Numbered from the stretch's first letter, positions 1,753-49,300 are shown. The stretch is 64,000 nt of DNA from an uncultured Thermoplasmata archaeon (GCA_964458595.1 CAYWJQ010000006.1:69776-133775); one strand, 5' to 3'. Made by a program: numbers and translations. The notes: generated by a model from the sequence alone, not told the origin.

Positions 1753-1766
1753 ATTATCTTAGCCTT

Positions 1767-3416: not shown

Positions 3417-3417
3417 C

Positions 3418-4113: not shown

Positions 4114-4126
4114 CTATATCACTTTT

Positions 4127-4564
4127 CTATATAGTAAATTCTAAGGTGTCTTCCGATTGATGAGAAGCTACGACTTTTAACCAGTGATCGCCACTTTCTA
4201 ATTTAATATCGATTTTCACCTTTATAACCTCTGTGGGTGACCAGATGTTGTCATCCCCATCCACCAATTGGATAGACGAAGGCTGCTGTAAAGTGCCGTT
4301 GACAAGTATTTCTACATCGGTCTTATTCATGCTGGTCGAACCCGTATTTTTTACATAGACTATCAGAGGGTCATTCGGCATATTGTTTGGATCATTTATT
4401 ATTGATATGTCGCTCTTCAATCTTTCGCTTAACGCGTCTTCTCTTGATCTTATCCCGCTGGAGATCGAATCGGTAGAGGTGATGAAAACACCCGCTAGAG
4501 TCGATGCTACGACCATAGAGGCCAGAAAGAAGACCAGGTGCGAGCTCGATATAGAGAATCCCAT
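4127..4564 (-). CDS. flaG: Archaellum FlaG(ArlG)-like protein
   Basis: 145 aa; N-terminal hydrophobic segment MGFSISSSHLVFFLASMVVASTLAGV then beta-rich domain with KNTGST motif shared with the upstream FlaF-like ORF; F versus G assignment is by operon position only. Confidence 0.6.
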   Translation of the reverse strand: MGFSISSSHLVFFLASMVVASTLAGVFITSTDSISSGIRSREDALSERLKSDISIINDPNNMPNDPLIVYVKNTGSTSMNKTDVEILVNGTLQQPSSIQLVDGDDNIWSPTEVIKVKIDIKLESGDHWLKVVASHQSEDTLEFTI

Positions 4565-4576
4565 ATTTTTTACCTC

Positions 4577-9045: not shown

Positions 9046-9107
9046 ATCTTACCACCTTCCAGCACAAATATGAATTTGGCATCTCACCTTATTTAAACTC
9101 TTCCGTA

Positions 9108-9785
9108 TCATTTCAGATTCACCTTCCTCGAAGTGTAAACTGAAGGAGTAGTGAAGGAGATCTGAGTGGATTGACCCGTCTGAGGGATGAGTTTGATATC
9201 TACGGGCGTATTTGGTTCGAGATCGAGACCTATTGCATTAGCGTCGATGTAAATCTTTACCAAGGTGCCCTGTTCCATCACATTGGATTCGGCATAAACA
9301 CCTTCAGGATCTCTCAGTACCTCGGTCGTAAAATTATCTTTATCCGCTCCGGTCGGATCATCGACAGTTGAGTTGTGAAGTAGCTCGCCTGTCGCGTTTC
9401 CATCGTCTATTATTATTACAACATCGTCCATATCTAAAGGTCCACTTCCCGCCTGAAGACGGACTATTATCTCTACAACCTGTATATTTTTCTTCGTTGG
9501 ATTACTTGATTTTCCGTTTTTCTTTCTATCTCCTACGACCGATAGCGTATTCATACCGGTGCTCACCTCTGAAAGAGCTTGATCGGCTGTACTTTCCGAT
9601 TGATTCTGAAGTTTTGTCACCGTGTCAACTAAGACTCCAGCGACGATCGCCGTTATCAGTATGGTAGCTATCAACAGCATCAGTGAACTTACCCCAGTAG
9701 ACCCGGAGTCGTCTTTAGATAGACGGGTCTCTCTGTACGGGGAGGACTCTTGAAATAACTCAGTCTCTCTTAAGTCCTTAAGCAT
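9108..9785 (-). CDS. Divergent archaellin-like protein (class III signal peptide), first gene of the minus-strand accessory operon
   Basis: Hydrophobic N-terminal helix SGSTGVSSLMLLIATILITAIVAGVLVDTVTKLQ and C-terminal IKLIPQTG..TTPSVYTSRKV resembling the archaellin C-terminus [27 protein letters not shown]; long N-terminal extension, so start is uncertain. Confidence 0.7.
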   Translation of the reverse strand: MLKDLRETELFQESSPYRETRLSKDDSGSTGVSSLMLLIATILITAIVAGVLVDTVTKLQNQSESTADQALSEVSTGMNTLSVVGDRKKNGKSSNPTKKNIQVVEIIVRLQAGSGPLDMDDVVIIIDDGNATGELLHNSTVDDPTGADKDNFTTEVLRDPEGVYAESNVMEQGTLVKIYIDANAIGLDLEPNTPVDIKLIPQTGQSTQISFTTPSVYTSRKVNLK

Positions 9786-10053
9786 TATGATAAACAGGTC
9801 CGATTATCATATTATATTTAATGTCGTGATTATCTCTAGAGATAATAGCCTTCAGAAGTAAAAAAGATCGATAAGCTTATCTGAACGACTATATTAATGT
9901 CTTGATAAAATATAAGTATTTACACGATGTTATTAGAGCTGATAATAAGATCTGTTTTTCTAAAAAGATAAACCTATCTTATAAACGGAGTTGATTCTCT
10001 GTAGAAATAACCTTCTTATATAATTGATATTTGAAAACTTTTAGGATAATTGC

Positions 10054-10074
10054 TTCCGAATTTATATAATCGAT
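10054..10074 (+). promoter_or_regulatory. BRE/TATA-like promoter element of archaellin 1
   Basis: ttccgaatttatataatcgat about 50 nt upstream of ATG 10119; the same element recurs before archaellins 2, 3 and 5; aggaga SD-like motif about 7 nt before the start. Confidence 0.6.
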
Positions 10075-10118
10075 TAGGGTGGTGATTAAACTAGAGTATC
10101 CGAAAGGAGATAGTAAAG

Positions 10119-10727
10119 ATGAAAAAACTAAAACGAAAAGATGAAGAAGGGGCGATGGGCGTTGGGACGCTCATCATATTCATAGCCATGGTTCTAGTCT
10201 CGGCAGTGGCGGCCAGTGTACTCATCGACACAGCTAATAAGCTCCAACAGCAGGCAGAGAAAACTGGTGATCAGGCGATAAGAGAAGTCTCTACATCATT
10301 CATTGTAAAGGGTATTTTTGGATACGATGCCTCGAGTGGAGATGAAAGTCCAAATGAGATAGGGAACATATCTTTAAAAGTAGGTTTGGCAGCAGGTGCC
10401 CCTGCACAAAATCTTAATCAGACAGTGATCCAGATTACCAATGATACTAGTGAAGAGAATTTAGTAGCAGCAGGTGATAGTAGTACATCGGCAAATGGTG
10501 CTCATTATTCCTGGAATCCGATAATAGAACAACAGGGAAATGATAATCAGTATGTAGAACAAGGGGATCTTTATAATGTAACGATAAATATGAATAAGGC
10601 CTTAGGTGGACCAGTAGGAACACAGGCAGAAATATCCATTCAGATAATACCCAAGCACGGGACACCAACCTACGAAAAGGTGACAACGCCGCCCGTGATG
10701 ACTTCAAAAATTGTCGATCTCACCTAG
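10119..10727 (+). CDS. flaB: Archaellin (FlaB/ArlB family) 1
   Basis: Class III signal peptide [43 protein letters not shown]; conserved C-terminus [29 protein letters not shown]. Confidence 0.9.
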
Positions 10728-10737
10728 ATCTATCACT

Positions 10738-10765
10738 TAAAAACCTTTATTTTTTCATTTATCTG
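10738..10765 (+). terminator. T-rich terminator-like element after archaellin 1
   Basis: aaaaacctttattttttcatttatc directly after the stop; similar motif follows each archaellin transcription unit. Confidence 0.45.
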
Positions 10766-10914
10766 ATCTTGAAAAAATTTGTTTTCATCTTCACCCTAAA
10801 GTCTTATTGGTCTTGATAATAGAACAAAAAAATAGGCTTTGGTAAACAGAGTTTATTCTATAATTATGGAACAACTCTTAGTAATTAGAATTTAAAAATT
10901 AAAAGGATAATTTC

Positions 10915-10935
10915 TTCCGAATTTATATAATCGAT
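10915..10935 (+). promoter_or_regulatory. BRE/TATA-like promoter element of archaellin 2
   Basis: ttccgaatttatataatcgat, identical to the element at 10054. Confidence 0.6.
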
Positions 10936-10975
10936 AAGGGAGGTGATTAAGATAGTAAAAAGAAAGGAGGATACA

Positions 10976-11575
10976 ATGGCAGGAACAAAACGATTAAAAC
11001 GAAAAGATGAAGAAGGCGCGATGGGCGTAGGAACGCTCATCATATTCATAGCCATGGTTCTAGTGTCGGCTGTGGCGGCCAGTGTACTTATCGATACCGC
11101 TAATAAGCTCCAACAGCAGGCAGAGAAAACAGGCGATCAGGCGATCCGAGAAGTGGCGACCTCGTTTATAGTGAAGGATGTTATAGGATACAATGGAAAA
11201 GACGGTGAGATAGGAAATATATCTTTGAAAGTGGGCCTAGCGGCCGGAGCGCCCGCTCAGTCCTTGAACCAGACGGTTATACAGGTTCAGACCGATTCGA
11301 ATCAGGCGCATCTTACGGCTGCGGCTCAAGGATATGGTCCTGGATCTAACAATTATTCATGGCGAGAGGTCATCGAACAGGAAGATACTTTCAACCAGTA
11401 CTTAGAACAAGGAGATATAGTGAATATAACGATAAATCTGTATGAGATGTTCGGTAAAACAGTCGGGACTCAAAGCGAGATCTCCATCCAGATAATACCA
11501 AAGCATGGGACGCCAACCTATGAAGAGATAACGACGCCGCCCGTGATGGTAAGCAAGATCGTCGAGTTCACCTGA
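10976..11575 (+). CDS. flaB: Archaellin (FlaB/ArlB family) 2
   Basis: Same conserved N- and C-termini as archaellin 1; start placed at ATG 10976 (GGAGG 7 nt upstream) rather than the GTG at 10943 in the ORF track, which lies almost inside the promoter element. Confidence 0.88.
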
Positions 11576-11586
11576 GGATAGATACA

Positions 11587-11615
11587 GAAAACCTTTCCCT
11601 CTTTTCATTATTATA
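11587..11615 (+). terminator. T-rich terminator-like element after archaellin 2
   Basis: aaaacctttccctcttttcattattat. Confidence 0.45.
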
Positions 11616-11697
11616 TTGCACACGTGCGTGAAGATTGGTTATATTTTTCTATTTTTTCAAAATTGATAATCAGGGATGAATAATCAGAGAAATAATC

Positions 11698-11721
11698 GTT
11701 TCCTAATTTATATAGTGAATA
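11698..11721 (+). promoter_or_regulatory. BRE/TATA-like promoter element of the archaellin 3-4 pair
   Basis: cgtttcctaatttatatagtgaat, followed by conserved leader atcatgctgtatccgagaggagataaaacatg. Confidence 0.6.
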
Positions 11722-11762
11722 AGAGAGGTGATTATCATGCTGTATCCGAGAGGAGATAAAAC

Positions 11763-12401
11763 ATGAGAAGGATAAAACGAGAAGACGAAAAAGGAGCGAT
11801 GGGCGTAGGAACGCTCATCGTATTCATCGCAATGGTACTGGTAGCCGCGGTAGCGGCCAGTGTACTTATCGACACAGCGAACAAGCTACAGCAGCAGGCA
11901 GAGCAAACAGGTGATCAAGCGATCAGGGAAGTATCGACCGCATTCCAAGTACACGATGTATTTGGATATAATGCTGCTGGTGACAATAAGATAGAGAATC
12001 TAACGCTTAAAGTAGGTTTAGCGGCAGGAGCGCCAAGTCAAGACCTGAATCAAACTGTAGTTCAGGTTTCAGGTCCTTCTAGCGAAGCGAATCTACTAGC
12101 AGTAGATAGCGACAATTATGATCTTGGCGAAGGAGCAGATAGTGATTCGTATGCGATAGACAATATAATCGAGCAAGAAGATGGTGGATCTGTAGAGTTT
12201 TCAGATGTCCGCTATTTAGAACAAGGAGATCTAGTGAACATAACGATAGCTATAGATGAAACTTCAGTAGGTGGGCCAGGCACTGGGATAGGTCCTCAAA
12301 CAGATCTATCGATCCAGATAATGCCGAAGCACGGCACGCCGACCTACGAGGAAATAACCACACCACCAGTGATGACAACGAAGATAGTTGATTTAAACTA
12401 A
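11763..12401 (+). CDS. flaB: Archaellin (FlaB/ArlB family) 3
   Basis: [61 protein letters not shown]; variable middle; conserved C-terminus. Confidence 0.9.
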
Positions 12402-12410
12402 GGTGATAAC

Positions 12411-13022
12411 ATGAGAAGGATAAAAAGAGAAGATGAAAAAGGAGCGATGGGCGTAGGAACGCTCATCGTATTCATCGCGATGGTGCTAGTAGCTGCGGTA
12501 GCAGCTAGCGTTTTGATCGATACCGCGAACAAGTTACAGCAGCAGGCAGAACAGACAGGAGATCAAGCGATCAGGGAAGTATCCACCGCTTTTACCGTTA
12601 AAGACGTCTATGGAGTAGACGGAGGAACTTATGGTGATGAAAACGGCAAGATAGACACGTTATACATGAAGATAGGCCTAGCGGCAGGAGCTCCTGCTCA
12701 GGACATGGACCAGACGATCATACAGCTGAAAAATGATACTGCAGAAGCAAATCTACAGAACGGAAGTAGTGCAGGATCTTCTGATTATACAATAGACCAG
12801 GTCATCGAACAAAGTGATCCTGAAGATGGTTACTTAGAACAGGGTGACATCCTCGAGATAGAAATAGATGTCACTTCAGCACTAGATGATGGATCGGCTA
12901 CCGTTGGATTAGGTCCACAGGAAGATGTTTCCATACAGATAATACCGAAGCACGGTACACCTACCTACGAACAGATCACCACGCCGCCTACGATAATTAA
13001 CACCCATGTAGACCTAGGTTAG
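12411..13022 (+). CDS. flaB: Archaellin (FlaB/ArlB family) 4
   Basis: N-terminal 60 residues identical to archaellin 3; 9-bp intergenic spacer (ggtgataac), so co-transcribed with archaellin 3. Confidence 0.9.
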   Translation: MRRIKREDEKGAMGVGTLIVFIAMVLVAAVAASVLIDTANKLQQQAEQTGDQAIREVSTAFTVKDVYGVDGGTYGDENGKIDTLYMKIGLAAGAPAQDMDQTIIQLKNDTAEANLQNGSSAGSSDYTIDQVIEQSDPEDGYLEQGDILEIEIDVTSALDDGSATVGLGPQEDVSIQIIPKHGTPTYEQITTPPTIINTHVDLG

Positions 13023-13029
13023 ATGCGAT

Positions 13030-13075
13030 GAAAAACCCTTTCCCTATTATTATTTTTAATTCTTTTTTAATTTAA
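13030..13075 (+). terminator. T-rich terminator-like element after archaellin 4
   Basis: gaaaaaccctttccctattattatttttaattcttttttaattt; near-identical to the element after archaellin 6. Confidence 0.5.
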
Positions 13076-13125
13076 CTCCTCTATTTTCAAAATAACTCCT
13101 CCTCTCTGTTATCGTTGTAGATAAT

Positions 13126-13149
13126 CGTTTCCGAATTTATATAGTGAAT
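13126..13149 (+). promoter_or_regulatory. BRE/TATA-like promoter element of the archaellin 5-6 pair
   Basis: cgtttccgaatttatatagtgaat plus a leader identical to that of archaellin 3. Confidence 0.6.
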
Positions 13150-13191
13150 AGGAAAGATGATTATCATGCTGTATCCGAAAGGAGATAAAAC

Positions 13192-13800
13192 ATGAGAAGG
13201 ATAAAAAGAGAAGACGAAAAAGGAGCGATGGGCGTTGGGACGCTCATCGTGTTCATCGCGATGGTACTGGTAGCCGCAGTAGCGGCTAGTGTACTGATAG
13301 ATACAGCGAACAAGTTACAGCAGCAGGCAGAACAGACAGGAGATCAAGCGATCAGAGAAGTTTCGACCGCATTCCAGGTGCAGGACGTGTTTGGTTATGA
13401 CGCCTCTAGTGGGGGCTTAGAGAATATAACATTGAAGGTAGGCTTAGCAGCAGGTGCACCAGCACAAGATCTGAATCAAACGGTGATACAGATATCTGGA
13501 CCAAGTAATGAAGATAACTTGATCGCACCCCATAACAGCAGTGACTATGCAGATGGTGGTAACTATTATATCAGAGGCATAATCGAACAGGAAGGTGACA
13601 CAGGTACATTCTCAGATGTCCGGTATTTAGAGCAGGGAGATCTTGTTAATATAACAATATCTCTCACTGATAGTGATATAAGTAGTCCAGTAAGCACCCA
13701 GACGGATTTGTCGATCCAGATAATGCCGAAGTACGGAACGCCGACCTATGAAGAGATCACCACGCCGCCAGTGATGACATCGAAGATAGTAGATCTATGA
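13192..13800 (+). CDS. flaB: Archaellin (FlaB/ArlB family) 5
   Basis: Conserved archaellin N- and C-termini. Confidence 0.9.
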
Positions 13801-13813
13801 CAAAGGTGATAAC

Positions 13814-14398
13814 ATGAGAAGGATAAAAAGAGAAGACGAAAAAGGCGCGATGGGCGTGGGAACGCTCATCGTATTTATCGCCATGGTACTGGTAGCCGCG
13901 GTAGCGGCCAGTGTACTGATCGACACAGCGAACAAGTTACAGCAGCAGGCAGAACAGACAGGAGATCAAGCGATCAGAGAAGTTTCGACCTCGTTCACAG
14001 TTAAAGATGCCTACGGACAAGACAACGATGATGATGGCCTGATAGAGGATGTTGTTTTAAAGATAGGATTGGCTGCAGGTGCTCCTGCACAGAACTTAGG
14101 TCAAACGATGCTTCAGCTAAAAAATGATACGGCTGAAACTAACGTTAAAGTCACGAGTACCTCTTACAGTAAAGTGATCGAACAGGATTCTGATGGTCAA
14201 ATAGATTATTTGGAACAGGGAGATATAGTGAAAGTTGAAGTTACAGGTATCGGTACTGCTAGTTATTTCGATACTGGGAATGGTCTTGGTACTCAGCAGG
14301 ATCTTTCCATCCAGATAATACCGAAGCACGGCACGCCGACTTACGAGCAGATAACAACACCACCTACGATAGTAGATCAACACGTAGATCTTACCTAA
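13814..14398 (+). CDS. flaB: Archaellin (FlaB/ArlB family) 6
   Basis: Conserved archaellin N- and C-termini; 13-bp spacer to archaellin 5. Confidence 0.9.
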   Translation: MRRIKREDEKGAMGVGTLIVFIAMVLVAAVAASVLIDTANKLQQQAEQTGDQAIREVSTSFTVKDAYGQDNDDDGLIEDVVLKIGLAAGAPAQNLGQTMLQLKNDTAETNVKVTSTSYSKVIEQDSDGQIDYLEQGDIVKVEVTGIGTASYFDTGNGLGTQQDLSIQIIPKHGTPTYEQITTPPTIVDQHVDLT

Positions 14399-14404
14399 AA
14401 GCGA

Positions 14405-14447
14405 TGAAAAACACCTTTCCCTATTATTATTTTTTAATTCTTTTGAA
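14405..14447 (+). terminator. T-rich terminator-like element after archaellin 6
   Basis: gaaaaacacctttccctattattattttttaattctttt. Confidence 0.5.
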
Positions 14448-14599
14448 TAATGAATCATTTTTGAAGATAAAAGATCTTTTAAAATATTTTGATTATTAGG
14501 CTTCAAAATCATAAGCGAGATAAGATTTCACAATTATTCTAACTGATAATAATCGTCAAAGCTTTATGAATTTCTAGCTAGATAAGTAATGCGTTCTTA

Positions 14600-14662
14600 G
14601 AACAACCCGTTTCCTATTCAAAATGAATATAGGAGAGGTAAACCCCCTAGTGATAAAACATG
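14600..14662 (+). other. Degenerate copy of the archaellin promoter/leader with no archaellin coding sequence downstream
   Basis: ccgtttcctattcaaaatgaatataggagaggtaaaccccctagtgataaaacatg aligns with cgtttcctaatttatatagtgaataagagaggtgatta...gataaaacatg, but the TATA box is disrupted and the following ORF (14660-14869) has no archaellin motifs. Confidence 0.5.
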
Positions 14663-15630
14663 TCCCTAGGTTCCGGGGAATTTACCTCTCTTTTCATCCT
14701 GAACCGGCCCATTTTCTTAGAGCCCTTCAACTTTTCTTTTGATCTCCTGCTCATTTCCGGCGACAAAGAATGTAATCCCTTCCATATCTCTGTTCTTATT
14801 GCAGCACATTATATTCAAACTATCCTTCCAGAACTATATCTGGGCAACAGTGAGATCGGAATCATCTAGTATGAATTTTGATGTACCACAGCACTTCCTC
14901 TGTTCCTTTTGAAATTATCCATCTCAAATTTAAAATCTACTATCTCTTCCGACATCTCTCTCATCTCATCCGGATAATATTCCCCCTGATCCTGGCTATC
15001 AGGTATTATATCCTCAAAACTTTCATTTCCCTCTTTTTCAGCTACCAGCCTATCTTAAACGACTTCACTGCCTTCAATGTTACTCAAAGACGGCAATATT
15101 ACATGAGGAAATAAGTCGTCTTGGAATCTTTTTAATTTTCTTATATTTTTGAAAATAATAATAAGTTAAACCTTAAAGATAGAAAAAACATAAGTTATCC
15201 ATCTACCATTTTAAACATTCAAAATCAAATAAGATCTTTATAGAAAAAATCGAACTCTAAAATAAAAAAAATTTTTTAATTCCGTATGGAAGAATTTTTT
15301 CATTTTCCTTCAAAAACTACTCAATGAAAATTTAATCTAAAATAAAGATGTTTTTCCTCTAATCAACTGGTTTTAGTATATATGAGATCGTTATCGGTTG
15401 CTCGAAATGATGAGTTTTTCTTTCTTTAGTAATCAAGGATGATTATTATAGAGAATAAATCTACTGCGATGTTTTCATCCTTGGTAATCAACCATCTCAA
15501 AAAACATTGATAAATAAACCATATAATCGTATTCAATGATGATTTTCAATGATGATAATTCGAGTGTTTTATCAAGATTGATACCACTTTCGAAATTACT
15601 ATTTATATCGATAATGATATTTCATAACGA

Positions 15631-15655
15631 GAACAGGAATTGATTGCGCCTGTTC
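15631..15655 (+). promoter_or_regulatory. Inverted repeat upstream of the seventh archaellin
   Basis: gaacagg-(11 nt)-cctgttc, about 40 nt upstream of ATG 15696 and just downstream of an A/T-rich tttatat box at about 15602. Confidence 0.3.
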
Positions 15656-15695
15656 GTAATCGCCCTTTATCGGGTGTCTAAGAGGCGGATAGTTT

Positions 15696-16319
15696 ATGAG
15701 ACGACTAAAAAGAAATAGTGAAGTAGAAGACGAAAAAGGTATGATGGGTGTGGGAACCCTGATGATCTTCATAGCGATAGTACTAGTGTCTGCAGTATCT
15801 GCGGGAGTATTCATCCGAACAGTGACGATGTTAAAACAGCAGGCAGAACAGTCCGCGGAAGAAGCGATGGCCGAGGTATCCACTTATATCAAGGTGAGAT
15901 CGATGCTTGGGATAAGAAATAAGACCGGAACCGGTCTCAAGAAGATTTACGTGAACTTGGGAGTAGGTCCGGGTACACCTCCGCAGAACTTAGAAAATCT
16001 GCTGATACAAGTCGATAACGGAGACGCACAAAAAGCCCTAGAATACAGTCCTGATAAAGCAAGCGGAGAGAATTTTACAGCGGTAGCTCTAAAAGATCCT
16101 GAAGGCGAATTCGATAGAGAAGACAACCCGTTGATCTCTAGTGGTACAACTCTGCAGTTGACTTTCAATATAACACAGATCGATGGAAATACGACGGGCT
16201 CTTTCGATCTACCACCACAGACCGAGATGAACATACAGTTCACTCCAAAACACGGTGCGAGTACGATAGAGATATTGGTCACACCTTCGGTTTACCACAA
16301 GGACATAATGCATCTGTAA
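15696..16319 (+). CDS. flaB: Divergent archaellin paralog 7
   Basis: KGMMGVGTLMIFIAIVLVSAVSAGVFIRTVTMLKQQAEQ signal peptide/helix and C-terminal NIQFTPKHGASTIEILVTPSVYHKDIM; distinct promoter and central region. Confidence 0.75.
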   Translation: MRRLKRNSEVEDEKGMMGVGTLMIFIAIVLVSAVSAGVFIRTVTMLKQQAEQSAEEAMAEVSTYIKVRSMLGIRNKTGTGLKKIYVNLGVGPGTPPQNLENLLIQVDNGDAQKALEYSPDKASGENFTAVALKDPEGEFDREDNPLISSGTTLQLTFNITQIDGNTTGSFDLPPQTEMNIQFTPKHGASTIEILVTPSVYHKDIMHL

Positions 16320-25121: not shown

Positions 25122-26081
25122 TCAAACTACCGAAAAAGTCTTCATACTGTCTTCTTTATCTTTTTCTTCGTCCTCATCCCCCTCTTCTTTTTCTATGTTT
25201 GGAGATATTTCGGACAGCAGTTTACTGATCTTGGAAGAGGCTCTCTTAAAATCTCCCCCTTGTCCGAGATTGCGCAAATTTTTCAATCTTCTCCTATATT
25301 CTTTGGCCTCGTTTTCGGAGATATCCCTTCGTTTCAATATGCTCTTGGCTCTTTCCAATTTGATTGAGAACGAAAATAGATCGTCCAGCTTATCGAGGCC
25401 TTTATCCAGATGCTCTATGGCTTTATCTATTTTACCTCTTTTGGCCGCTTCGACACCTGTTTTTACGGGCACTTTTATCTTCTGAAGATTGGCGTTAGAA
25501 AATCTAGATATCCGCAGTTTTTTCCTAGCTCTATTGAGCTTATTTTCAAACTTTTTTTCTTTTCTTTCCGTATCTTTTCGCTTGATTTCTTTGATCTCTT
25601 CGGCCTTGTTTAAAGCTCCGAGGTAGTCACCGGTCTTACATTTCTTTCCTACTTCTTTGATCTTTGCTCCCAATTCTTTCTTCTTTTCGTTTGCCGATTC
25701 TATATCTCTTATCTCTCCTACGGAACTGAGGATATCATCTATATCCTTTATCACTTCTACATCTAGTACGAGTTCATGTAGAAGATTTACGGCTTCTTCA
25801 TGATCACCTTTCTCTTTCAGAGAAAAAACACGTTTTATTTTCTTTTTTATATGGTTTACATCCACACTCTCGTTTTCTAGTCCGGATAAAACTTTTCTGA
25901 CACGCTTGAGATCTTCTTTGAGTTCCCCCGGATAGAATCCGTATTCTTCAAACTCGGTATCTTTATCTTCCAACTTTTTGATCTCTTTCGTTAATTTTTC
26001 GATAATTTCGTCGTCAGAGGACATGTTTTCGGCTTTTGGGATTTTTTGAAGGTTTCTACTTTCTTTTATTTCCTTTTTCAT
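25122..26081 (-). CDS. Hypothetical K/E-rich coiled-coil protein
   Basis: 319-aa ORF, low complexity, codon usage consistent with neighbours. Confidence 0.4.
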   Translation of the reverse strand: MKKEIKESRNLQKIPKAENMSSDDEIIEKLTKEIKKLEDKDTEFEEYGFYPGELKEDLKRVRKVLSGLENESVDVNHIKKKIKRVFSLKEKGDHEEAVNLLHELVLDVEVIKDIDDILSSVGEIRDIESANEKKKELGAKIKEVGKKCKTGDYLGALNKAEEIKEIKRKDTERKEKKFENKLNRARKKLRISRFSNANLQKIKVPVKTGVEAAKRGKIDKAIEHLDKGLDKLDDLFSFSIKLERAKSILKRRDISENEAKEYRRRLKNLRNLGQGGDFKRASSKISKLLSEISPNIEKEEGDEDEEKDKEDSMKTFSVV

Positions 26082-26208: not shown

Positions 26209-29200
26209 ATGGGAAATAGTCGGGAGCTAAATCCTCAAGAACTGGAAAAAGAGATTCTTCAGTTTTGGAGGTCAGAAGATATCAACGATGAATTGATCGA
26301 TTCTAGGAGGGGTGGTAGAAATTATTATCTGGCTAGACCCCCTTTTCCTGTCAAAGATGAACTTAGCTGGGACGAATTATATGGCAATATAATCTACGAT
26401 GCGTGGGCCCGATTCATGAGTATGCGCGGTTTTAACGTCAGAAACGGTATAGGGACGGACCCGTTGAGTCTCAGGATAGAGAAATTGGCCTTGAAAGAAG
26501 AGGGTCTCAGATGCTTGAAAACTTCACTTGAGGGTCATGAAAGTTTTTCAGAGGACCTCTCTGACAGGGCTGAAGTCCTAAAGGAAGAGACCTTCGATCA
26601 TCTTCAGCATCTTGGGCTTTGGACGAACTCGGAATATGATTATGAAACTACCTCCGGTAAATTTATAGACTCGATATGTTGGACTATCAAAGAACTGATG
26701 GAAAAAGATTTACTCGCAAAAAAAGAGAAGCCCGTAAGATGGTGCCCAGAATGTAAAATTCCTGTGATGGGTTCCGAGAAGTCCACTAGAGAAGAACCGA
26801 GGAATGACCCCATAGTGAAGGTCCCTCTCGCGAGCGGGAAAGAGAGATATTTCCTAGTGGAGATAAAAGATTTGTGGAAACTACCCGCGAGCCTGTCTTT
26901 AGCCGTGAATCCGAAAATGAAATATTCGGTCATAAAATCTACTACAGGGGATGGAGAGGTCGAACAATACGTGGTTCTCCAGGAAAAAGCGGCCGAGATG
27001 ATGGAGAAAGCGGGAAGAAGATACACCGTTTTGAATACGGTAGATGGTAAAAAATTAAAAGGACTTTCCTTCAGATATCCTTTGGGAGAAAAGATACCCG
27101 AAAAAGTAGAAATTGATTGTGAACATAAAAGAAGGGTTTTAGGTACAGATGAGGTGAATGAGGAGGGAACCGGTATCGAATTTTTGGTTCCTCCGTATGA
27201 AGAGAGCCATCTTGAGATCGCCGAAGAAAATGATATGAATATCTACGATCCGCTTCGGGATAATGGTTACTTTGATGGGGGACCGAGGAAGAATAAATAT
27301 TCGGGTCTTTCGACTTTCCAAAGCGAAGAAGTGATCTTAGATGATCTTAGAGCTAAAGGATTATTGTTTTGGAATGAACGAGAACAAAGGAAAGTAGAAG
27401 TTTGCGACGCCTGCAAGAGTAAACTTATAAGACATAGAAAGAAGGAATGGTTCTTCGACAGTGAGAGATTCGAAGAAGACATAGGTGAGGGATTAAATCA
27501 GATCGAGACCCTGCCTTCCAATAAAAATTTGAAAGTGGACGATTGGTTAGTTACTAGGGATAATCACTGGGGCATGGCTTTCCCGATTTGGAGGTGTGAA
27601 TGCGGTAAATCTTTTATACCCTCAGAGCGGAAGGAATTAGCCGATAACTCGGACTATGATGTAGATGATCTATTCATCCCGGAAACGATGAAAAATATAG
27701 AAGTGGAATGTCCCGAATGCGGTAAAAGGATGGACCGTGATGACAGGGTGATCACCCCCTCACTTTTGAGAGCCGCATCCCCCTGGGCTCAGATAGGATA
27801 TCCCCATGATGAAAAAGGATATCAGTCGTGGTGGCCCGGAAAACTGATGATAGGTAGCGATCCAAGAGAGGACGGTTTATTTTCTGCAAATCTTAGTTTG
27901 TCTCTTTCTTTATTTGATGAGCCCAGCATCGAAAAGATTTTGCTCAAAGGAACGATCATAAGCGAGATAGATTATAAGAACGTGAAAGGACTGGTAGACA
28001 ATCAGGGCCACGATACATTGAGAATACATCTTTTATCGGACTCACATCTCTGGGAAGATCGAAAGATCGAAGGAGATAACCTTCAAGAACCTCATCCGAT
28101 GATAAGAGTCCTTTGGAACCTGCATCAGTTCTTTAAAGACAATTTGAGAACATTGGATTTAGAACTGGAAGATCTAGTATCGGAACCGGATTTGGAAAGA
28201 TTAGAGGTGGAGGATAGATGGTTGTGTTCCTGTTTGGAAACGACCAAAGAGGTTTCCCATGAATATTACGAACATGGAAGGATAGACGAGGCTCAGAAAG
28301 TATTTCAAGATTTTATCCTAGAGGATTTTGCTCAATGGTATATAAGTTTAGCTAGAGAGAGACTCGGTGATGGTAAGGAGAACGAAGAAAATATATTGAG
28401 CGCGATGTACCGTTGTTTGAAGGACATATCGAAATTGATATTCCCTATAGCTCCTTTCATCGGTGAAAAGATATATCTCGATCTTAATGAAGATGAGAAG
28501 AGCGCTTTCCTCTCAGGATGGCCTGATTTTGAAGAGAAGTACCGTTCCCTCGAGTTAGAAGATGAGATGAAAGAGATCAGAAGAATAGTAAATGAAATAA
28601 AAGAGATCAAGCGGAGAGAAGAACTGCCTGAGAAATGGCCGCTAGATGAGATAATATACAAACCGAAGGATGAAGAAAGTAAGGACCTGATCGAAAGATA
28701 CAGCCACGTTATCAAAGACAAGGCCAAAGTGAAAATAGTCAAAATTTTAGAGGTGGGAGAGGAATGGGAAGATTCCATCCTTAAAGTGAGACCCAACGAG
28801 GAGACCATAGGAAAGTCTTATCAGCAGTGGAAAAGCAAGATTGCTACCATGCTGCAACAAAGGTCTCCCGAAGAGATAAGAAAAGGCGTCGAGGAAGGCG
28901 AGTTCACCATGGGATTAGAGGGTCAGATCATAGAAATAGAACCGGAGATGGTGGAATTCGAAAAGGACATGCCCGAAGGATACAAAGAATTGTCTTTAGA
29001 CGGACATGATATCTTCGTTAATCTGGAGGTCACTAACCAGATATGGGAAGAAGAGATGGCCGATGAGATCATACTTAGATTGAAAAGTATGCGAGAAGAC
29101 ATGAATCTTGCTGAGGAAGATGAGATAGACGCTTATATTTCAGGGGAGGATTACATTATAGAAGCGGTGGAAAATCATATGGCGGGGATAAAAGAAAGGA

Positions 29201-30207
29201 GCGGGGCGAGAGAGATTAAAGTCGATGACGAGGACACTGCCGAATGCGAGTACATCCTAGAGTGGGAAATAAACGGTCAAGATGTGGAGATAGGAATCAA
29301 CCCTCTCTATAAAACGCAGGTTTTGGATTATTTCACGAGATTATCCGGAGTAGACGAACAGATCGCTGAGACCCTTTATGAAGCTAGATATACCTCTATC
29401 GAGCATCTCAAAGAAGCATCGGCTTCAGAGCTATCGGGTGTAGAGGGCATCAAAAGGAGCTTAGCTAGGAGTATAATCAACTCTCTAAAAGAGATCGAAA
29501 GTAAAGAAGAACTTCAGGAAGAGAAGAAACCCTCTGAAAAGCTAAAGGCCGAGGAAGAAGAAGAAAAAGAAACTGGTGAAAAAGAGATGGAGGAAGAACC
29601 AGAGGAAGAGATAGAAGAAGAGACTGAGGAAAAAATGGAAAAAGAAGCCGAAGAAGAGCCGGAAGAAGGACTTGAAGAAACTGAAGAAAAACTCGAGGAA
29701 GAAGAAGAGGAAACTATGGATAGAGAGAGGATCCAAGAGGAATTACCAGATAAAATTTCACTTGGCTCCACGTACTTGATCGAAGAAGAAGGAACGGAGG
29801 AATCTTTCAGCTTATTGAAAGAAGTATTAGATATGGGTCAGCAGGGTCTTTGTGTATCTAGAGATTATCCGGAAAAGATAAAGGAGGAATACGATTTAGA
29901 GGACGTTGAGATGATCTGGCTTTCGAACGTCGACAGGGAAGACGTGATCAGGCCGAAGAGTTTGGAAAAGCTCAGTTTAGCTTTAGAGAACTTTTTGGCA
30001 AGGAAAGGTGGAGTCATATTGTTAAACGGACTTGAGTATCTCATCACTAATAATGACTTCCGAACTGTGCTCCACCTCATCCAATCCATTAAAGATCAGG
30101 TTGCCATAAATGAATCTATACTCCTAATACCGATTAATCCCACGGTGGTCGAAGATAGCCAACTTGATCTATTGAGCGGAGAAATTGATGAATTGATCGA
30201 ACCCTGA
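26209..30207 (+). CDS. Isoleucyl-tRNA synthetase-like paralog with degenerate catalytic motifs, fused to helix-hairpin-helix region, acidic linker and DUF835-like domain
   Basis: Class I aaRS scaffold recognisable (PPFP...MRGFNV...GTDPLSLRIE; DWLVTRDNHWGMAFPIWRCECG; Zn-knuckle CPEC/CDAC motifs) but HIGH is replaced by WDEL and the KMSKS position reads YKNVKG; C-terminal 450 aa are HhH-like, E-rich linker and a domain homologous to the centre of the 5773-9045 protein. Confidence 0.8.
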   Translation: MGNSRELNPQELEKEILQFWRSEDINDELIDSRRGGRNYYLARPPFPVKDELSWDELYGNIIYDAWARFMSMRGFNVRNGIGTDPLSLRIEKLALKEEGLRCLKTSLEGHESFSEDLSDRAEVLKEETFDHLQHLGLWTNSEYDYETTSGKFIDSICWTIKELMEKDLLAKKEKPVRWCPECKIPVMGSEKSTREEPRNDPIVKVPLASGKERYFLVEIKDLWKLPASLSLAVNPKMKYSVIKSTTGDGEVEQYVVLQEKAAEMMEKAGRRYTVLNTVDGKKLKGLSFRYPLGEKIPEKVEIDCEHKRRVLGTDEVNEEGTGIEFLVPPYEESHLEIAEENDMNIYDPLRDNGYFDGGPRKNKYSGLSTFQSEEVILDDLRAKGLLFWNEREQRKVEVCDACKSKLIRHRKKEWFFDSERFEEDIGEGLNQIETLPSNKNLKVDDWLVTRDNHWGMAFPIWRCECGKSFIPSERKELADNSDYDVDDLFIPETMKNIEVECPECGKRMDRDDRVITPSLLRAASPWAQIGYPHDEKGYQSWWPGKLMIGSDPREDGLFSANLSLSLSLFDEPSIEKILLKGTIISEIDYKNVKGLVDNQGHDTLRIHLLSDSHLWEDRKIEGDNLQEPHPMIRVLWNLHQFFKDNLRTLDLELEDLVSEPDLERLEVEDRWLCSCLETTKEVSHEYYEHGRIDEAQKVFQDFILEDFAQWYISLARERLGDGKENEENILSAMYRCLKDISKLIFPIAPFIGEKIYLDLNEDEKSAFLSGWPDFEEKYRSLELEDEMKEIRRIVNEIKEIKRREELPEKWPLDEIIYKPKDEESKDLIERYSHVIKDKAKVKIVKILEVGEEWEDSILKVRPNEETIGKSYQQWKSKIATMLQQRSPEEIRKGVEEGEFTMGLEGQIIEIEPEMVEFEKDMPEGYKELSLDGHDIFVNLEVTNQIWEEEMADEIILRLKSMREDMNLAEEDEIDAYISGEDYIIEAVENHMAGIKERSGAREIKVDDEDTAECEYILEWEINGQDVEIGINPLYKTQVLDYFTRLSGVDEQIAETLYEARYTSIEHLKEASASELSGVEGIKRSLARSIINSLKEIESKEELQEEKKPSEKLKAEEEEEKETGEKEMEEEPEEEIEEETEEKMEKEAEEEPEEGLEETEEKLEEEEEETMDRERIQEELPDKISLGSTYLIEEEGTEESFSLLKEVLDMGQQGLCVSRDYPEKIKEEYDLEDVEMIWLSNVDREDVIRPKSLEKLSLALENFLARKGGVILLNGLEYLITNNDFRTVLHLIQSIKDQVAINESILLIPINPTVVEDSQLDLLSGEIDELIEP

Positions 30208-30237: not shown

Positions 30238-31146
30238 TTGAGTATGGAAATAGGTGTTATCGGTGCGGGAGCGATGGGAACTTTTCTATCTGGAATACTA
30301 GGTAGAGATCATCCCGTCGATCTGTTGGGCCGAAAAGATAGAGATATAAAAACCATCGAGATAACCGGTGAAACTAGCTTAGAATCTTCCGTCAACTATA
30401 CCGTGGATCCATCCGACTTCTCTAACGAAGACCTGATAATAGTCTGCACGAAATCTTTCGATACTGAAGAGGCGATAGGTACCCTTTCAGAGTATATATC
30501 TTCGGATTCTCTAGTCTTGACCCTTCAAAATGGGTTGGAAAATGAAGAGATCATCTCTGATTACGTCGGTAAAAGTAGGACTATCGGCGGCGTCACTAGT
30601 CACGGGATAACTTTCAAAAAGCCAGGGAAGGTTAAACACGCGGGTAAAGGGGACACCATCATCGGGCCTTATCCAAAAGGTCTAGATGAAAGACTGAAGA
30701 GGGTGAAGAACGTATCAGAGGAATTCAACACATGTGGATTGGAAACGAAAATCAGTGAAAATATCGTAGGCCATATATGGAAAAAAGCGATCATCAATTC
30801 CGCTATAAATCCATTGACAGCCCTGACCGAGGTTAAGAACGGATTATTAGTCGATGATCCCGATCTTTTCGAGCTTATGAAAAACACTGCATTAGAGAGT
30901 TACCATGTAGCCGAGAGGTATGTTGATCTTCCTGTCGATGACGTCGTAGATGAAACGATGAAGGTAGCAGAACAGACATCAGAAAACATATCGAGCATGC
31001 TTCAGGATAAAATGAAAGGTAATAAAACTGAAGTAGAGCAGATAAATGGTGCCTTGGTGGATAAAGGAAAAAGATATGATATATCTACTCCGATAAATAA
31101 GGTTCTTTACAGATTGATAAAAGGGATGGAAAATAGCTATCTTTGA
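30238..31146 (+). CDS. 2-dehydropantoate 2-reductase (ketopantoate reductase, ApbA/PanE family)
   Basis: N-terminal Rossmann motif IGVIGAGAMG; 302 aa. Confidence 0.65.
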   Translation: MSMEIGVIGAGAMGTFLSGILGRDHPVDLLGRKDRDIKTIEITGETSLESSVNYTVDPSDFSNEDLIIVCTKSFDTEEAIGTLSEYISSDSLVLTLQNGLENEEIISDYVGKSRTIGGVTSHGITFKKPGKVKHAGKGDTIIGPYPKGLDERLKRVKNVSEEFNTCGLETKISENIVGHIWKKAIINSAINPLTALTEVKNGLLVDDPDLFELMKNTALESYHVAERYVDLPVDDVVDETMKVAEQTSENISSMLQDKMKGNKTEVEQINGALVDKGKRYDISTPINKVLYRLIKGMENSYL

Positions 31147-32369
31147 CTTTTATTTCGATCTAGGACCTCGCCCAGGAGATAAACGTCTTCGGCTTTTTTG
31201 ATCTTGACTCTTTTCCACTTGCCTATGAGGTCTTTGTCTTCCTCTTTCAAAACAACGACCTTGTAATTGTTCATCCTTCCTTTCAAGGAATCTCCTTTAC
31301 CCTCTTCTAAGACCAAAACTTCGGTTTCCCTATTGACGAAGCCTTCATTTATCTCTCGACTTATATCGAATCTCAGATCGGTCATCTCTTTCGATCTTTT
31401 TTTCTTTTCTCTAGAATGGACTTTATCGTCCATCTCAGCGGCTCTCGTGCCTTCTCTAGGGCTGAATCTAGTAACATTTATTATGTCCGGTTTTACCTTT
31501 TTAACCATTTCTTTCGTCCTTTCAAAGTCCTCCTTTTCTTCGCCAGGAAAACCCACGATCACGTCTGTCGAAAGCGTCAAATCTGGGAATTCTTCCTTGA
31601 AGATTTTAGCGGTTCTTTTCCATTCTTGAGCGGTATAGTTCCTGTTCATATTCTCGAGGATCTTATCGGATCCAGACTGCAATGGTAAATGCAGAAATTT
31701 GTAGACCCTCTCGTTTTTCATGACCTCTAACAGTCCATCTTGGATAGGCCTTAATGTATCGACGTTCATCATCCCGATCCTTATCCTGTGATCACCTTCC
31801 ACCTTCAATAGTTCATTCAACAGTTCTATCAAGTCCGTGTCTCTGTCTTTCCCGTATGCCGCCGCATCTTGACAGGTCAATCTGACCTCTTTCGTAGAGG
31901 TCGAGATCAATTCATCGAATCTTTCTTTGATTTCATCTAAAGACCTGCTTTCGAGACCTCCTCTTGCAAGTTTTGTGATGCAGTAGGAACATCTACCGGA
32001 ACATCCCGTCGCTATCGGTATCGTCCCGATGACTGAATTCTCTTGAGAATTCCTTTGAAATCTGCTGAATTCGACCTCGTCCGGCGCGATGAAATCGAGG
32101 TTCTTACATCTCCCTTTCATCTCGTCCTTTCTGATGGTAGAGAGACAACCGGCCACGATAACTTCCGAACATTCGTCTTCTAACTCTTCTATGCGTCTCT
32201 TCATCCTTTCTTCGGTCTTTTTTATCACTACGCAGGTACCGATCAGCACTTTATCCGCTTCTTCTATAGAATCCACTTCTTTGTGCCCCTCTTTTTCCAG
32301 AGATTCAGCTATCATCTCGGTTTCTCCCTGGTTCATGGTACATCCGTAAGATTCCACGTAGAACTTCAT
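31137..32369 (-). CDS. Radical SAM methylthiotransferase (MiaB/RimO/MtaB family) with TRAM domain
   Basis: N-terminal YVESYGCTMNQGE, radical SAM CSGRCSYC, C-terminal TRAM-like region; 410 aa. Confidence 0.85.
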   Translation of the reverse strand: MKFYVESYGCTMNQGETEMIAESLEKEGHKEVDSIEEADKVLIGTCVVIKKTEERMKRRIEELEDECSEVIVAGCLSTIRKDEMKGRCKNLDFIAPDEVEFSRFQRNSQENSVIGTIPIATGCSGRCSYCITKLARGGLESRSLDEIKERFDELISTSTKEVRLTCQDAAAYGKDRDTDLIELLNELLKVEGDHRIRIGMMNVDTLRPIQDGLLEVMKNERVYKFLHLPLQSGSDKILENMNRNYTAQEWKRTAKIFKEEFPDLTLSTDVIVGFPGEEKEDFERTKEMVKKVKPDIINVTRFSPREGTRAAEMDDKVHSREKKKRSKEMTDLRFDISREINEGFVNRETEVLVLEEGKGDSLKGRMNNYKVVVLKEEDKDLIGKWKRVKIKKAEDVYLLGEVLDRNKSQR

Positions 32370-46334: not shown

Positions 46335-49300
46335 TCATACTTTTTTCAGTCTCACTTCGAATCTGGCACCGCCCAGTTCCGAGTCTTTCACATCTATCTT
46401 CCCATCATATATATTTATCAGCTTATCGACAAGGAACAGTCCCAATCCGGTCCCCCTATCCGCGTCAGTGGTGAATCCTCTTTGGAATATCTTGTCCTTC
46501 TTCTCGTCGGATATACCTTTACCGTCGTCTTCTATTATACATATGCCTTCATCATCGGTCTCTTCGATTTTTATATGGATCTTCGTACCTTCAGAGTACT
46601 TGATCGAGTTCTCTATTATGTTTGAAAAGACCTCCTGTAAGAGCGGACCAGCTTTTACTCTGCAGTCTTTTTCACAGTCCATGGTGATCTCCATTTCTAT
46701 ATCCATCATCTGGTCCTGCAGAGCACCGACCGCATCGTGGAAAGTACTCTCCATACTGATCTCACCGATCTCTTCGTTGTTCGCTTCTCTAAGAGTCCTG
46801 ATCTTTTCTATCAGTTCTACGCTGCTCCTCACGCCTTTTTCAGCTTTCAACAAGTATTCCTCCGCATCCCCCGAAAAATCGATCTCCTCTTTCATCAGAT
46901 GGAGATAACCCTCTATCACCTGGATCTTGTTCCTTATGTCGTGTCTCAACAGAGAATGAAGGAATTCTTCTCTCTCCTTGGCCTCCTTCCTTTCGGTTAT
47001 ATCTTGAACGTAACCTACCGTTCCACTAACCTCTCCTTTACCGTCTCTGTAAGGCGTTGCACCCATTATAACACTCACTGACTCGCCGTTTTTCTTTTTC
47101 AACTCGGTCTCGTAGACTTCGCTGAGTCCTTCCTTACGGCTTTTGGTTTTCCCACTTATCTTTTCATAAACATCTTCCGAAGTGATCTCCGATACGTTTT
47201 TACCCATAATTTCTTCTTTATCGTAACCCAACATCTCAGCAAATCTATCGTTAGCAAATATTAACTCGTCTTCAAGATCGGTTATCGTGACTCCCACTAC
47301 TGAATTTTCTATTATGGACCTGTACCTCTCCTCGCTATCTATTAGCTGCTGCTTCCTCTCTTCTCTCTTCACTATGCTGGTCAAGATTTCGACCACCGCT
47401 TCGAGAAGCTTAACCTCTTCTTCTAAAAAGATGCCGACATCTTCTTTGGGCCTTTCTTCTAAATAATTGACTTGGATAGATCCTCTCACGCTGTCGTCGA
47501 TCGATAATTTCTTTTTCAAGTTCCTCCCGCTTTCTTCATAATCTTCACTTTTGTATTCATCGTCGTCGAACACTATTTTAGCGCTTGTAACTTCCGGGTA
47601 CTGGAAAGCCTCGGGTATCATCTGCGCAGTTTTTCCAAATATATTCTCCAGTTCGATCTCGGGTTTCTGGGATAAACGCAGGATACTGTAAAGAAGATTG
47701 AGTTCTTTCTCACGTTCTTTTCTATCTTTTATATTTCTAGCCACGCTTAGGACCGCGGGTTCTCCTTGGTAAGAGATGTAGCTAGAATTGATCTCTTCCG
47801 GTATTTTTCTTCCTTCTTTGGTAACATGGACGGTCTCGAATATCAATTCTTTTTTGTCTTCGATATCTTTAATTTTTTCTTTGATGTCTTTTGAATGTTC
47901 AGCCGTATCGATATCTCCAGGCCCCTTCTCTAATAATTCTTCTCGAGTGTAACCCAATCGATCGACCGCTTCTTGGTTTACCTTCAAAAAGTTTCCGTCC
48001 ATATCATGGATAAAGACCGCATCGTTCATACCCTCGATCAATTTCTCGTAATCTTCTTTTGCTTGAATGAGTTTTTCTTCCATCTCTTTTCTTTTAGTGA
48101 TATCCTCCGTAAAAGCGATGGTTTGATCCTCCAATTTAACGACGTTTACGATCCAGTGTCCGTGACTACCGTCTTTCTTAAGAAAAGGAATTTCTATTCT
48201 AGTTTCTCCCGTTTCTAGCAATTCCTCGAAACTTTCCTCAGCCTTCTCATGATGTTCAGGAGGAGTCAGATCAAATATATTCATGCCGATAAGTTCCTCC
48301 TCAGAATATCCGGTCATCTCACATGCGCTGTCGTTGACTTCGATGTATTCACCCTCTAAATCCGTCACGAGTACTCCGATAGGAGCATTTCTCACGTAAC
48401 TTTGAAACTTTTCCTTTGTTTTTTCTAGTTCTACCTCTCTTTCTTTTCTTTCCGTTATATCAGTTGCGGTACCCATCAACCGTTCTTTTCCTTCGCTATC
48501 TTCTATCTTTTCGGCTCTTATCTCTACCCAGATCCACTGACCGTTTTCATGCTTTATCCTCAGATCGACATTATTCAGCGTTCCGCTCTCGATAGCTTCG
48601 TTCAAATAAGTTTTAGCCTCGGATATATCTTCGGGATGTACTCGTTCTAAAAGCGAATCGAAAGTATGTTCTGAAGTCGAACCCGGTTCAAGCCCTACCA
48701 ATTTTTCCATAGACTCGTACCAAACATTCAATTCATCTTCGATGTTATATTCCCAGATACCTGTGTCTGTCGTATCTAAGGCCATCTGAAGTCTTTTCTT
48801 CGTTTTCTTGAGTTCATTTTCCGCCTTTTTCCTTTTGGTAACATCTCTGCCGATCACTATCTCTCCTTCAAAACCTTCTTCTTCGAATACGGCGACATTT
48901 ATTTCGGCATGAACTATATCTCCTTCTTTAGTGGTCAATTCCACGTCATATGGAGGAATCTTTTCTCCACTTTTTCTTTTTTTGAATCGTTCCATAGTCT
49001 TTTCCTGGTACTTTTCGGACAAGAAGGGGGCCTCTAGAAGCGATTTTCTCAGGATCTCGTCTTTTTCATAACCCAGTTTTTTTACCGCAGCATCATTCAC
49101 ATCCTGGAAAATTCCTTCTTTATCCAATAAAAACGTAGGATCGGGAGACGCGTTGTAGATTTTTTTGAATCTTCTTTCGGATTTTTCGAAACGCTTCTCG
49201 GCTATTTTTCTATCCGATAGATCTCTGATATTGCATTGTACCACCTTTTTGCCGCCAACTTGATAGGTGTTGCTCACGAACTCGACCGGCGTTTCCTCGC

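Follow-up and report, generated by a model that had tools for sequence, protein, structure and literature searches.

A degenerate isoleucyl-tRNA synthetase with a KaiC-like tail, predicted to be non-catalytic, in Thermoplasmata

We describe here a gene found in a stretch of 64,000 nucleotides, referred to below as the window, from an uncultured Thermoplasmata archaeon (GCA_964458595.1, CAYWJQ010000006.1:69776-133775). The gene is a complete open reading frame (ORF) encoding a protein of 1332 amino acids (aa) with the body of an isoleucyl-tRNA synthetase (IleRS), followed by a helix-hairpin-helix (HhH) domain, a Glu-rich linker and a C-terminal DUF835 domain, which we call the tail. The sequence signatures of amino acid activation and of editing are replaced in this protein, which very probably does not aminoacylate tRNA. 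The explanation that we favor, with guarded confidence, is that it is a pseudo-IleRS that has kept a second, non-catalytic function of an IleRS–HhH–iKaiC fusion of Thermoplasmata, iKaiC ("inactivated KaiC") being the DUF835 tail.

Domain organization and loss of catalytic motifs

Pfam matches along the protein follow the domain order of an IleRS (Table 1), and solved IleRS structures can be aligned with the body over its whole length, residues 5-991 corresponding to residues 7-993 of 8c8w_A (E 1.3e-70), the type-2 IleRS of Priestia megaterium. The cysteines of the Zn knuckles are also present. A preliminary description of the window, made from the sequence alone, had proposed for ORF 26209-30207 an IleRS architecture continued by an HhH region, a Glu-rich linker and a C-terminal domain that recurs in a protein of the archaellum operon. 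The Pfam matches and this alignment bear out the architecture, and all three C-terminal parts were found, including the recurrence of the last of them (see below). On the NCBIfam equivalog model for ileS, TIGR00392, the protein scores 314.5 bits, which is below the cutoff of 621.4.

The HIGH and KMSKS motifs of class I aminoacyl-tRNA synthetases (aaRS) stabilize the transition state of adenylate formation. At the HIGH position the window protein reads SWDEL (nt 26365-26379), with W54-D55-E56-L57 at nt 26368-26379, and at the KMSKS position it reads EIDYKNVKG (nt 27964-27990), with Y589-KNVKG at nt 27973-27990, in a loop that is nine residues shorter. WDEL and YKNVKG lie exactly where the preliminary description had placed them, and the alignment confirms that the two motifs are lost rather than intact and misread. 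The motif GWDxHGLP has become GTDPLSLR, of which only the Gly and the Asp remain, and the amino acid pocket motif DQTRGWF (DQxRGWF) has become DPREDGLF. Both editing motifs of the CP1 domain are replaced as well, WTTTPWT by EIKDLWK and GTGxVHxAP..D by GTGIEFLVPPYEESH.

A degenerate clade in presumably halophilic Thermoplasmata

Two independent homolog searches, the second with the Glu-rich linker removed from the query, gave an identical list of 24 clusters (at the 90% identity level) that share the degenerate architecture at 35-63% identity; what limited this list was the candidate step of the search and not the linker. Their source labels are "class I tRNA ligase family protein" or "DUF835 domain-containing protein", and they come from Candidatus (Ca.) Natronoplasma and unclassified Thermoplasmatota; the NCBI taxonomy places Natronoplasma within Ca. 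Halarchaeoplasmatales. When GTDB species genomes were scanned with a profile of the tail, 175 relatives were identified, and the loci analyzed, to which all statements on the genome scan refer, are the best 80 of these 175. They include about 29 loci or genome records of the degenerate clade, from many projects. Degenerate proteins with the same fusion, in 24 clusters and about 29 independent genome records, exist in related genomes. Names of the records include Natronoplasma, Saliniplasma, Great Salt Lake bins and "Sed10"-type sediment bins, and the encoded proteins are strongly acidic, with a fraction of Asp plus Glu of 0.18-0.24. Record names and acidic composition together point to hypersaline Thermoplasmata, Ca. 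Halarchaeoplasmatales, as the bearers of the degenerate gene.

The motif losses are family-wide, being common to all 24 clusters; neither the His nor the Gly of the HIGH position occurs in any of the clusters or in any of the degenerate genome loci. The residues that replace the motifs are themselves conserved, as [NS]W[DN][ED][LI][YF] in place of HIGH and EI[DE]Y[KQ]NV in place of KMSKS, with NWDELY and EIDYKNV in the core clade. Deep branches of the clade, at 32-35% identity to the window protein, are eroded further, and their replacement residues differ too. The Asp of the GxD motif is kept in most members, and the eight Zn-knuckle cysteines (179, 182, 399, 402, 463, 465, 501 and 504) are invariant in 28/28 degenerate sequences.

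Probable descent from a working, fused IleRS

The preliminary description knew of no described family with this combination. A fusion peculiar to this protein is not supported, as the same fusion is standard in catalytically intact IleRS from Thermoplasmata. One representative, P0025, has the same tail as the window protein and intact catalytic motifs; used as a query, it identified more than 100 clusters of 1320-1500 aa in which an IleRS is followed by HHH_5, often with double Zn ribbons, and by DUF835. These are labeled "isoleucine--tRNA ligase" and come from metagenome-assembled genomes (MAGs) of Thermoplasmata and Methanomassiliicoccales. The canonical fused architecture is also found at about 29 full-length loci of the genome scan. 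The canonical fused proteins retain H[LMIV]G[TQ], GxDMHGLP, WTTTPWT, GxVHxAPGHGxED, DQTRGWF and a full-length xM[SH]KS loop. Judged by these sequence comparisons, the IleRS–HhH–DUF835 fusion is the ancestral, ordinary architecture in Thermoplasmata and not special to the window gene.

Compared with fused IleRS of the Thermoplasmata type (MCK4456402.1, which is P0243; P0025; TET91789.1), the window protein has the same order of IleRS body, DUF5915, HHH_5, linker and DUF835, identical Zn-knuckle cysteines, a tail that is about 51% identical, and the most similar bodies outside its own clade. The fused enzymes differ from it in their intact catalytic motifs, in the Zn ribbons that often lie between HhH and DUF835, and in lacking the PanE-family neighbor described below. 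In local and exhaustive comparisons, the body of the window protein reaches 416-515 bits with the fused IleRS of Thermoplasmata, and no other IleRS gives it more than 357 bits. Degenerate and canonical tails share 26 invariant columns among 20 sequences, and the window protein has both the tail signature WLSN..RPK.LE..SL..EYL..NN.F and the HhH and DUF835 domains after DUF5915 in one polypeptide. In a neighbor-joining tree, which is shown without branch supports and counts as weak support, the degenerate clade is nested within the fused radiation. From the body scores, the shared tail columns and this nesting, the degenerate protein quite probably descends from a working IleRS that was already fused, without recruitment of new domains.

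The canonical fused proteins (P0221, P0224, P0231 and the others) have unusual motifs themselves, with HIGH as H[LMIV]G[TQ], lacking the fourth His, and KMSKS as QMHKS or, in some, QMHRH, in which the second Lys is replaced; these are presumed to be working enzymes. A second set of eroded, tail-bearing IleRS-like proteins of 1430-2330 aa was found at loci L035, L037, L038, L043, L044, L048, L050, L069, L076 and L078 and among the representatives P0296, P0297 and P0299-P0303, whose MAG labels are Methanomassiliicoccales or Thermoplasmata. GxDMHGLP is kept in this set, and TTTPWT mostly so, with HIGH eroded (for example to FHMGL or ITLGL), KMSKS absent and the editing His changed to Tyr. This looks like an independent, partial loss of catalysis, as far as the sequences tell. 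Because the erosion of HIGH and KMSKS in these proteins is independent and different, it suggests that a function of the tail can outlive catalysis.

Conservation and selection

Mean pairwise identity was calculated for each region within the degenerate core (n=20) and within the canonical fused proteins (n=15). In the body it is 0.42 in degenerate against 0.68 in canonical proteins for Rossmann-N, 0.46 against 0.57 for CP1, 0.44 against 0.65 for Rossmann-C/Zn and 0.43 against 0.60 for the anticodon-binding domain. The remaining values are 0.50 and 0.51 for DUF5915, 0.44 and 0.52 for HhH, 0.32 and 0.30 for the linker, and 0.73 and 0.65 for DUF835, which is the most conserved region of the degenerate proteins. 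These regional identities indicate that constraint has been relaxed on the catalytic core, has stayed level on the C-terminal tRNA-binding region and has tightened on the tail. For the closest pair of degenerate genes, dN/dS is about 0.05-0.09 in each domain of the body and about 0.03 in DUF835, these figures being upper estimates since dS is saturated in all available pairs. The degenerate body is not decaying, and purifying selection acts on the whole protein. Given that all activation and CP1 editing signatures are replaced family-wide and yet purifying selection is strong, a non-catalytic, aaRS-derived scaffold or binding factor, as the preliminary description had suggested, appears to be the best reading of the protein.

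An inactivated KaiC-like tail

Structure prediction models the tail confidently as an alpha/beta fold of the RecA/KaiC/ArlH type. In the fold comparison it scored 15.4 with PH0284, 14.8 and 14.7 with two structures of ArlH/FlaH (one of them 23% identical), 13.8 with KaiC, about 13 with Rad51 paralogues, and 13.2 and 12.1 with Elp4 and Elp6, which are subunits of a tRNA-binding ring. When a profile of the tail was compared with PDB chains by sequence only, the match to FlaH was marginal (E 0.39); the relationship to KaiC and ArlH rests on the comparison of the predicted fold.

The Walker A P-loop, GxxxxGK[ST], is absent after strand 1 of the tail, where strand 16-20 is joined to helix 25-35 by a loop of four residues (EEGT), and no Gly, Lys or Thr between strand 1 and helix 1 is invariant across 20 tails. 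The tail thus lacks a Walker A loop, which fits the label "iKaiC" (inactivated KaiC) under which Galperin et al. (2018, PMC5847659) list DUF835 among the output domains of response regulators in archaea. Archaeal ArlH/FlaH and other KaiC-like ATPases of the RecA superfamily (4yds, 4wia, 2dr3) have about 230 aa, whereas the tail has about 135, and, unlike in these ATPases, ATP binding is not expected of the modeled tail. The response regulators carry the same domain, PF05763, which serves as their C-terminal output or effector module in Methanomicrobia and Thermoplasmata (PMC5847659). Their input is a phospho-receiver (REC) domain, with or without PAS domains, in place of which the window protein has an aaRS body.

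One MAG of the degenerate clade (JAGXLI01, degenerate locus L020) encodes a further protein with this tail, at L068:5189-7525 (JAGXLI010000007.1). It is 779 aa long, has N-terminal zinc ribbons and no IleRS body, and its C-terminal DUF835 is 52% identical to the tail of the window protein. Within one genome, then, tails of the IleRS type are carried by other scaffolds too.

A proposed second function of the fusion, and the alternatives

According to the explanation favored here, the tail-bearing IleRS gene of Ca. Halarchaeoplasmatales would have lost amino acid activation and editing, while its IleRS fold stayed intact and the anticodon-binding module, the C-terminal tRNA-binding module, HhH and tail were all retained. 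Because selection is strongest on the tail, the preserved function would be a non-catalytic second role that was already present in the working fused enzymes. As to mechanism, the body and HhH domain might bind a nucleic acid, tRNA(Ile) or another, without charging, and the RecA-like tail, lacking Walker A, might dock the protein onto itself or onto rings of KaiC/ArlH-type ATPases. The protein would then be an adaptor or sensor that ties the status of tRNA or translation to a KaiC-type signaling or assembly hub. We put forward such a mechanism, acting through KaiC-type partners, as a doubtful possibility only.

A somewhat less doubtful, though still tentative, proposal is that the fusion has a second selectable function across Thermoplasmata that is independent of aminoacylation, so that the halophilic clade would represent a natural separation-of-function allele. 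The second function could be, for example, the reporting of tRNA(Ile) or translation status to KaiC/ArlH-type hubs, or the formation of a RecA-like ring that holds tRNA in the manner of Elp456. Catalysis would have been ceded to another IleRS, and the independently eroded proteins found elsewhere would be repeats of the same split. To the extent that their sequences reflect independent erosion, they make a separable, tail-linked function more credible.

Several observations weigh against the favored explanation. The conserved and probably co-transcribed neighbor of the degenerate gene is a PanE-family reductase gene, which the explanation did not predict, and not a KaiC-like or translation gene. 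A PanE-family gene lies on the same strand, -3 to about +60 nt downstream, in 29/30 degenerate-clade loci of the genome scan, including the branches of 32-35% identity; the exception is L027, where it is 5.5 kb away. No PanE neighbor was seen at the canonical fused IleRS loci of the scan. No canonical IleRS was found in any genome that carries the degenerate gene, the search covering the window, its leftward extension, the scan loci and the best 150 representatives. The place of the degenerate clade in the neighbor-joining tree, beside other fast-evolving sequences, may be due to long-branch attraction, and saturation of dS limits what the dN/dS values can say. Finally, tRNA binding and KaiC-type partners are both features that we infer.

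The nearly constant presence of the PanE-family gene next to the degenerate genes and never beside canonical fused IleRS genes, and its score on TIGR00745, well above the cutoff (Table 1), could instead mean that the protein is a neo-functionalized enzyme or regulator of pantoate/CoA or branched-chain metabolism, whose IleRS-like pocket would bind a branched-chain amino acid or a ligand related to keto acids and which would control the co-transcribed reductase. Ketopantoate derives from 2-ketoisovalerate, the valine precursor, and the Asp of the GxD motif, which in IleRS binds the alpha-amino group of the amino acid, is kept in most members. We nevertheless consider this explanation improbable. 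Otherwise the Ile pocket (DQTRGWF) is lost, as is the ATP site, which makes adenylation chemistry very unlikely, and the linkage is broken in L027. Moreover, the adjacency may be inherited gene order, because the wider region of FtsZ, Lpd, the degenerate gene, PanE and MtaB is syntenic across the clade.

It is still less probable that the IleRS body is a neutral remnant, a decaying spacer that is carried along, with function confined to the DUF835 tail, alone or together with HhH. The tail is by far the most conserved part of the degenerate proteins (0.73, compared to 0.42-0.50), and DUF835 works on other scaffolds, in the REC–DUF835 regulators (PMC5847659), in the FlaC–DUF835–bactofilin protein of the window and in the Zn-ribbon–DUF835 protein of L068. 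However, about 29 genomes retain unbroken ORFs of about 1300 aa, at identities as low as 32%, and none of the eight Zn-binding cysteines varies. The core clade conserves even the replacement sequences NWDELY and EIDYKNV. The dN/dS of the body is low, and the body is clearly more conserved than a true spacer, the Glu-rich linker at 0.32.

That the gene is instead the sole, working IleRS of the organism, with highly divergent catalytic motifs, is very unlikely. It gains what credit it has from the failure to find another IleRS and from the gene's single copy, synteny and strong purifying selection across about 29 genomes. None of the five ORFs of at least 900 aa in the window is a second IleRS, and the 10 kb beyond its left end contain only chemotaxis genes and no IleRS. 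No second tail-bearing IleRS was detected in the roughly 29 degenerate-clade genomes among the best 80 of 175 loci; the sole MAG matched twice, JAGXLI01 (L020 and L068), owes its second match to the 779-aa protein described above. This suggests that any canonical enzyme of the lineage is unfused. In the exhaustive IleRS comparison, the 150 best representatives were examined for candidates from halophilic Thermoplasmata, and none was convincing. P0365 is acidic and unfused but belongs to Nanohaloarchaeota; P0312, also acidic and unfused, groups with P0365, and P0333, likewise acidic and unfused, groups with a Bathyarchaeota sequence. P0298 is acidic, canonical and fused; its contig has 56% GC and encodes a POR subunit only 41% identical to that of Natronoplasma. 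The assembly of P0289 has no known degenerate copy, and P0027 is on a short archaeal contig that could not be assigned. P0312, P0333, P0298 and P0289 were placed outside the lineage.

The searches made could easily miss an unfused or bacterial-type IleRS, and a working enzyme would have to have lost HIGH, KMSKS (with a deletion of nine residues), the His of GWDxHGLP, DQTRGWF and both editing motifs together. Conservation is relaxed most in the catalytic domain, from 0.68 to 0.42, and the replacement residues vary in the deep branches, which is not expected of an active site. Charging of tRNA(Ile) is essential. From this and from the need of class I enzymes for HIGH and KMSKS, we infer that a separate, working and probably unfused IleRS does the housekeeping charging. 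The word "paralog" in the preliminary description rests on this reasoning. If these genomes truly had no other IleRS, present knowledge of class I aaRS catalysis would be overturned, which is very unlikely.

An assembly or sequencing artefact, in which an IleRS pseudogene had been joined to an unrelated DUF835 gene, is suggested by nothing beyond the unusual architecture and the low-complexity linker and can be dismissed: the identical protein occurs on four independently assembled contigs (NCBI, Logan), including GCA_905333805.1, the architecture recurs across the 24 clusters and about 29 genome records, and more than 100 clusters of canonical IleRS have the same fusion.

Relation to known aaRS-derived proteins

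The HisRS-like domain of GCN2 and HisZ are non-catalytic regulators derived from class II HisRS, with a protein kinase or ATP-phosphoribosyltransferase as partner. By analogy, the window protein may likewise be an aaRS fold without catalytic signatures that is maintained by purifying selection as a predicted binding or sensing module. It differs from GCN2 and HisZ in having as its scaffold an entire class Ia IleRS, editing domain included, which is coupled to an inactivated KaiC/RecA-like domain. The mupirocin-resistant IleRS paralogues MupA and MupB (NF000257, NF000258) give full-length profile matches to the window protein, of 253 and 238 bits. Each is an additional, divergent IleRS of the eukaryote/archaeal type, an active enzyme that replaces the inhibited IleRS; in contrast, the window protein falls far short of the 1900 bits of their cutoffs and has none of the catalytic motifs.

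Among the aaRS families, that of IleRS is considered one of the least prone to paralogy (PMC5388404). A search of the available literature found no description of an IleRS–KaiC-like fusion or of a catalytically dead IleRS, and a search on pseudo-aaRS in archaea found nothing specific. The degenerate clade makes two questions testable: what role the KaiC-like tail has in the working IleRS that a large group of archaea uses, and whether the signaling-hub role proposed for archaeal KaiC-like proteins reaches translation. It offers a clean handle on both, because in this clade the predicted non-catalytic function is isolated from aminoacylation.

Genomic neighborhood

Coordinates of the gene, its domains and its neighbors are given in Table 1. 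The 3' ends of the PanE-family and MtaB-type genes overlap by 10 nt, and an MtaB-type gene is syntenic in most degenerate-clade loci. Modifications of the t6A37 type are found on ANN-decoding tRNAs, including tRNA(Ile), which makes the conserved proximity of MtaB to an IleRS-derived protein curious. Homologs of the upstream coiled-coil protein (30-49% identity) occupy the same position in several degenerate-clade loci. At the Natronoplasma locus L004 (8099-9865, minus strand) the homolog has 588 aa and carries an N-terminal Zn ribbon, HHH_5 and a double Zn ribbon (DZR); many canonical fused IleRS have these modules between their body and their tail, and the degenerate tail lacks them. No tRNA genes were found within the window. 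A role in defense was considered and rejected, as neither the degenerate gene nor its two flanking genes had a PADLOC match.

Table 1. Coordinates of the degenerate IleRS gene, its domains and neighboring features in the window
Feature	Position	Strand	Remarks
Degenerate IleRS gene	26209..30207	+	Complete ORF, 1332 aa; degenerate IleRS body, HhH, Glu-rich linker, DUF835 (iKaiC) tail
Class I Rossmann/CP1 region	26254..27978	+	Pfam tRNA-synt_1, residues 16-590, E 7.6e-25
Anticodon-binding helical domain	28213..28653	+	Pfam Anticodon_1, residues 669-815, E 3.2e-25
DUF5915	28708..29301	+	Pfam, residues 834-1031; C-terminal domain of archaeal/eukaryote-type IleRS
Helix-hairpin-helix domain	29332..29493	+	Pfam HHH_5, residues 1042-1095, E 5.5e-8
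Glu-rich linker	29491..29715	+	Residues 1095-1169; low complexity, least conserved segment
DUF835 tail	29794..30183	+	Pfam PF05763, residues 1196-1325, E 5.8e-31, 107.5 bits (gathering cutoff 33.1)
PanE/ApbA-family 2-dehydropantoate 2-reductase gene	30238..31146	+	30 nt downstream; TIGR00745, 254 bits (cutoff 141)
MtaB-type tRNA ms2t6A37 methylthiotransferase gene	31137..32369	-	Convergent; TIGR01578, 411 bits
Lys/Glu-rich coiled-coil protein gene	25122..26081	-	319 aa; upstream, divergently transcribed
Archaellum operon	94..16319		ArlJ (T2SSF), ArlI (T2SSE), KaiC-family ArlH (3418..4113), several archaellins
FlaC_arch + DUF835 + bactofilin protein gene	5773..9045	-	1090 aa; usual position of ArlC/D/E

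The DUF835 domain encoded by ORF 5773..9045 is 37% identical to the tail of the window gene over 155 aa (E 8e-32). This second DUF835 gene is two genes from the gene for KaiC-family ArlH, and CheF, CheB, CheY and a PAS kinase are encoded just past the left end of the window (L093). Two further large ORFs appear to be unrelated to the degenerate gene. One encodes a hybrid sensor kinase of 1211 aa (46335..49970, minus strand) with REC, at least five PAS domains, HisKA and HATPase, and the other an RHS/YD-repeat protein of 1802 aa with a DUF6531 domain (56250..61658, plus strand).

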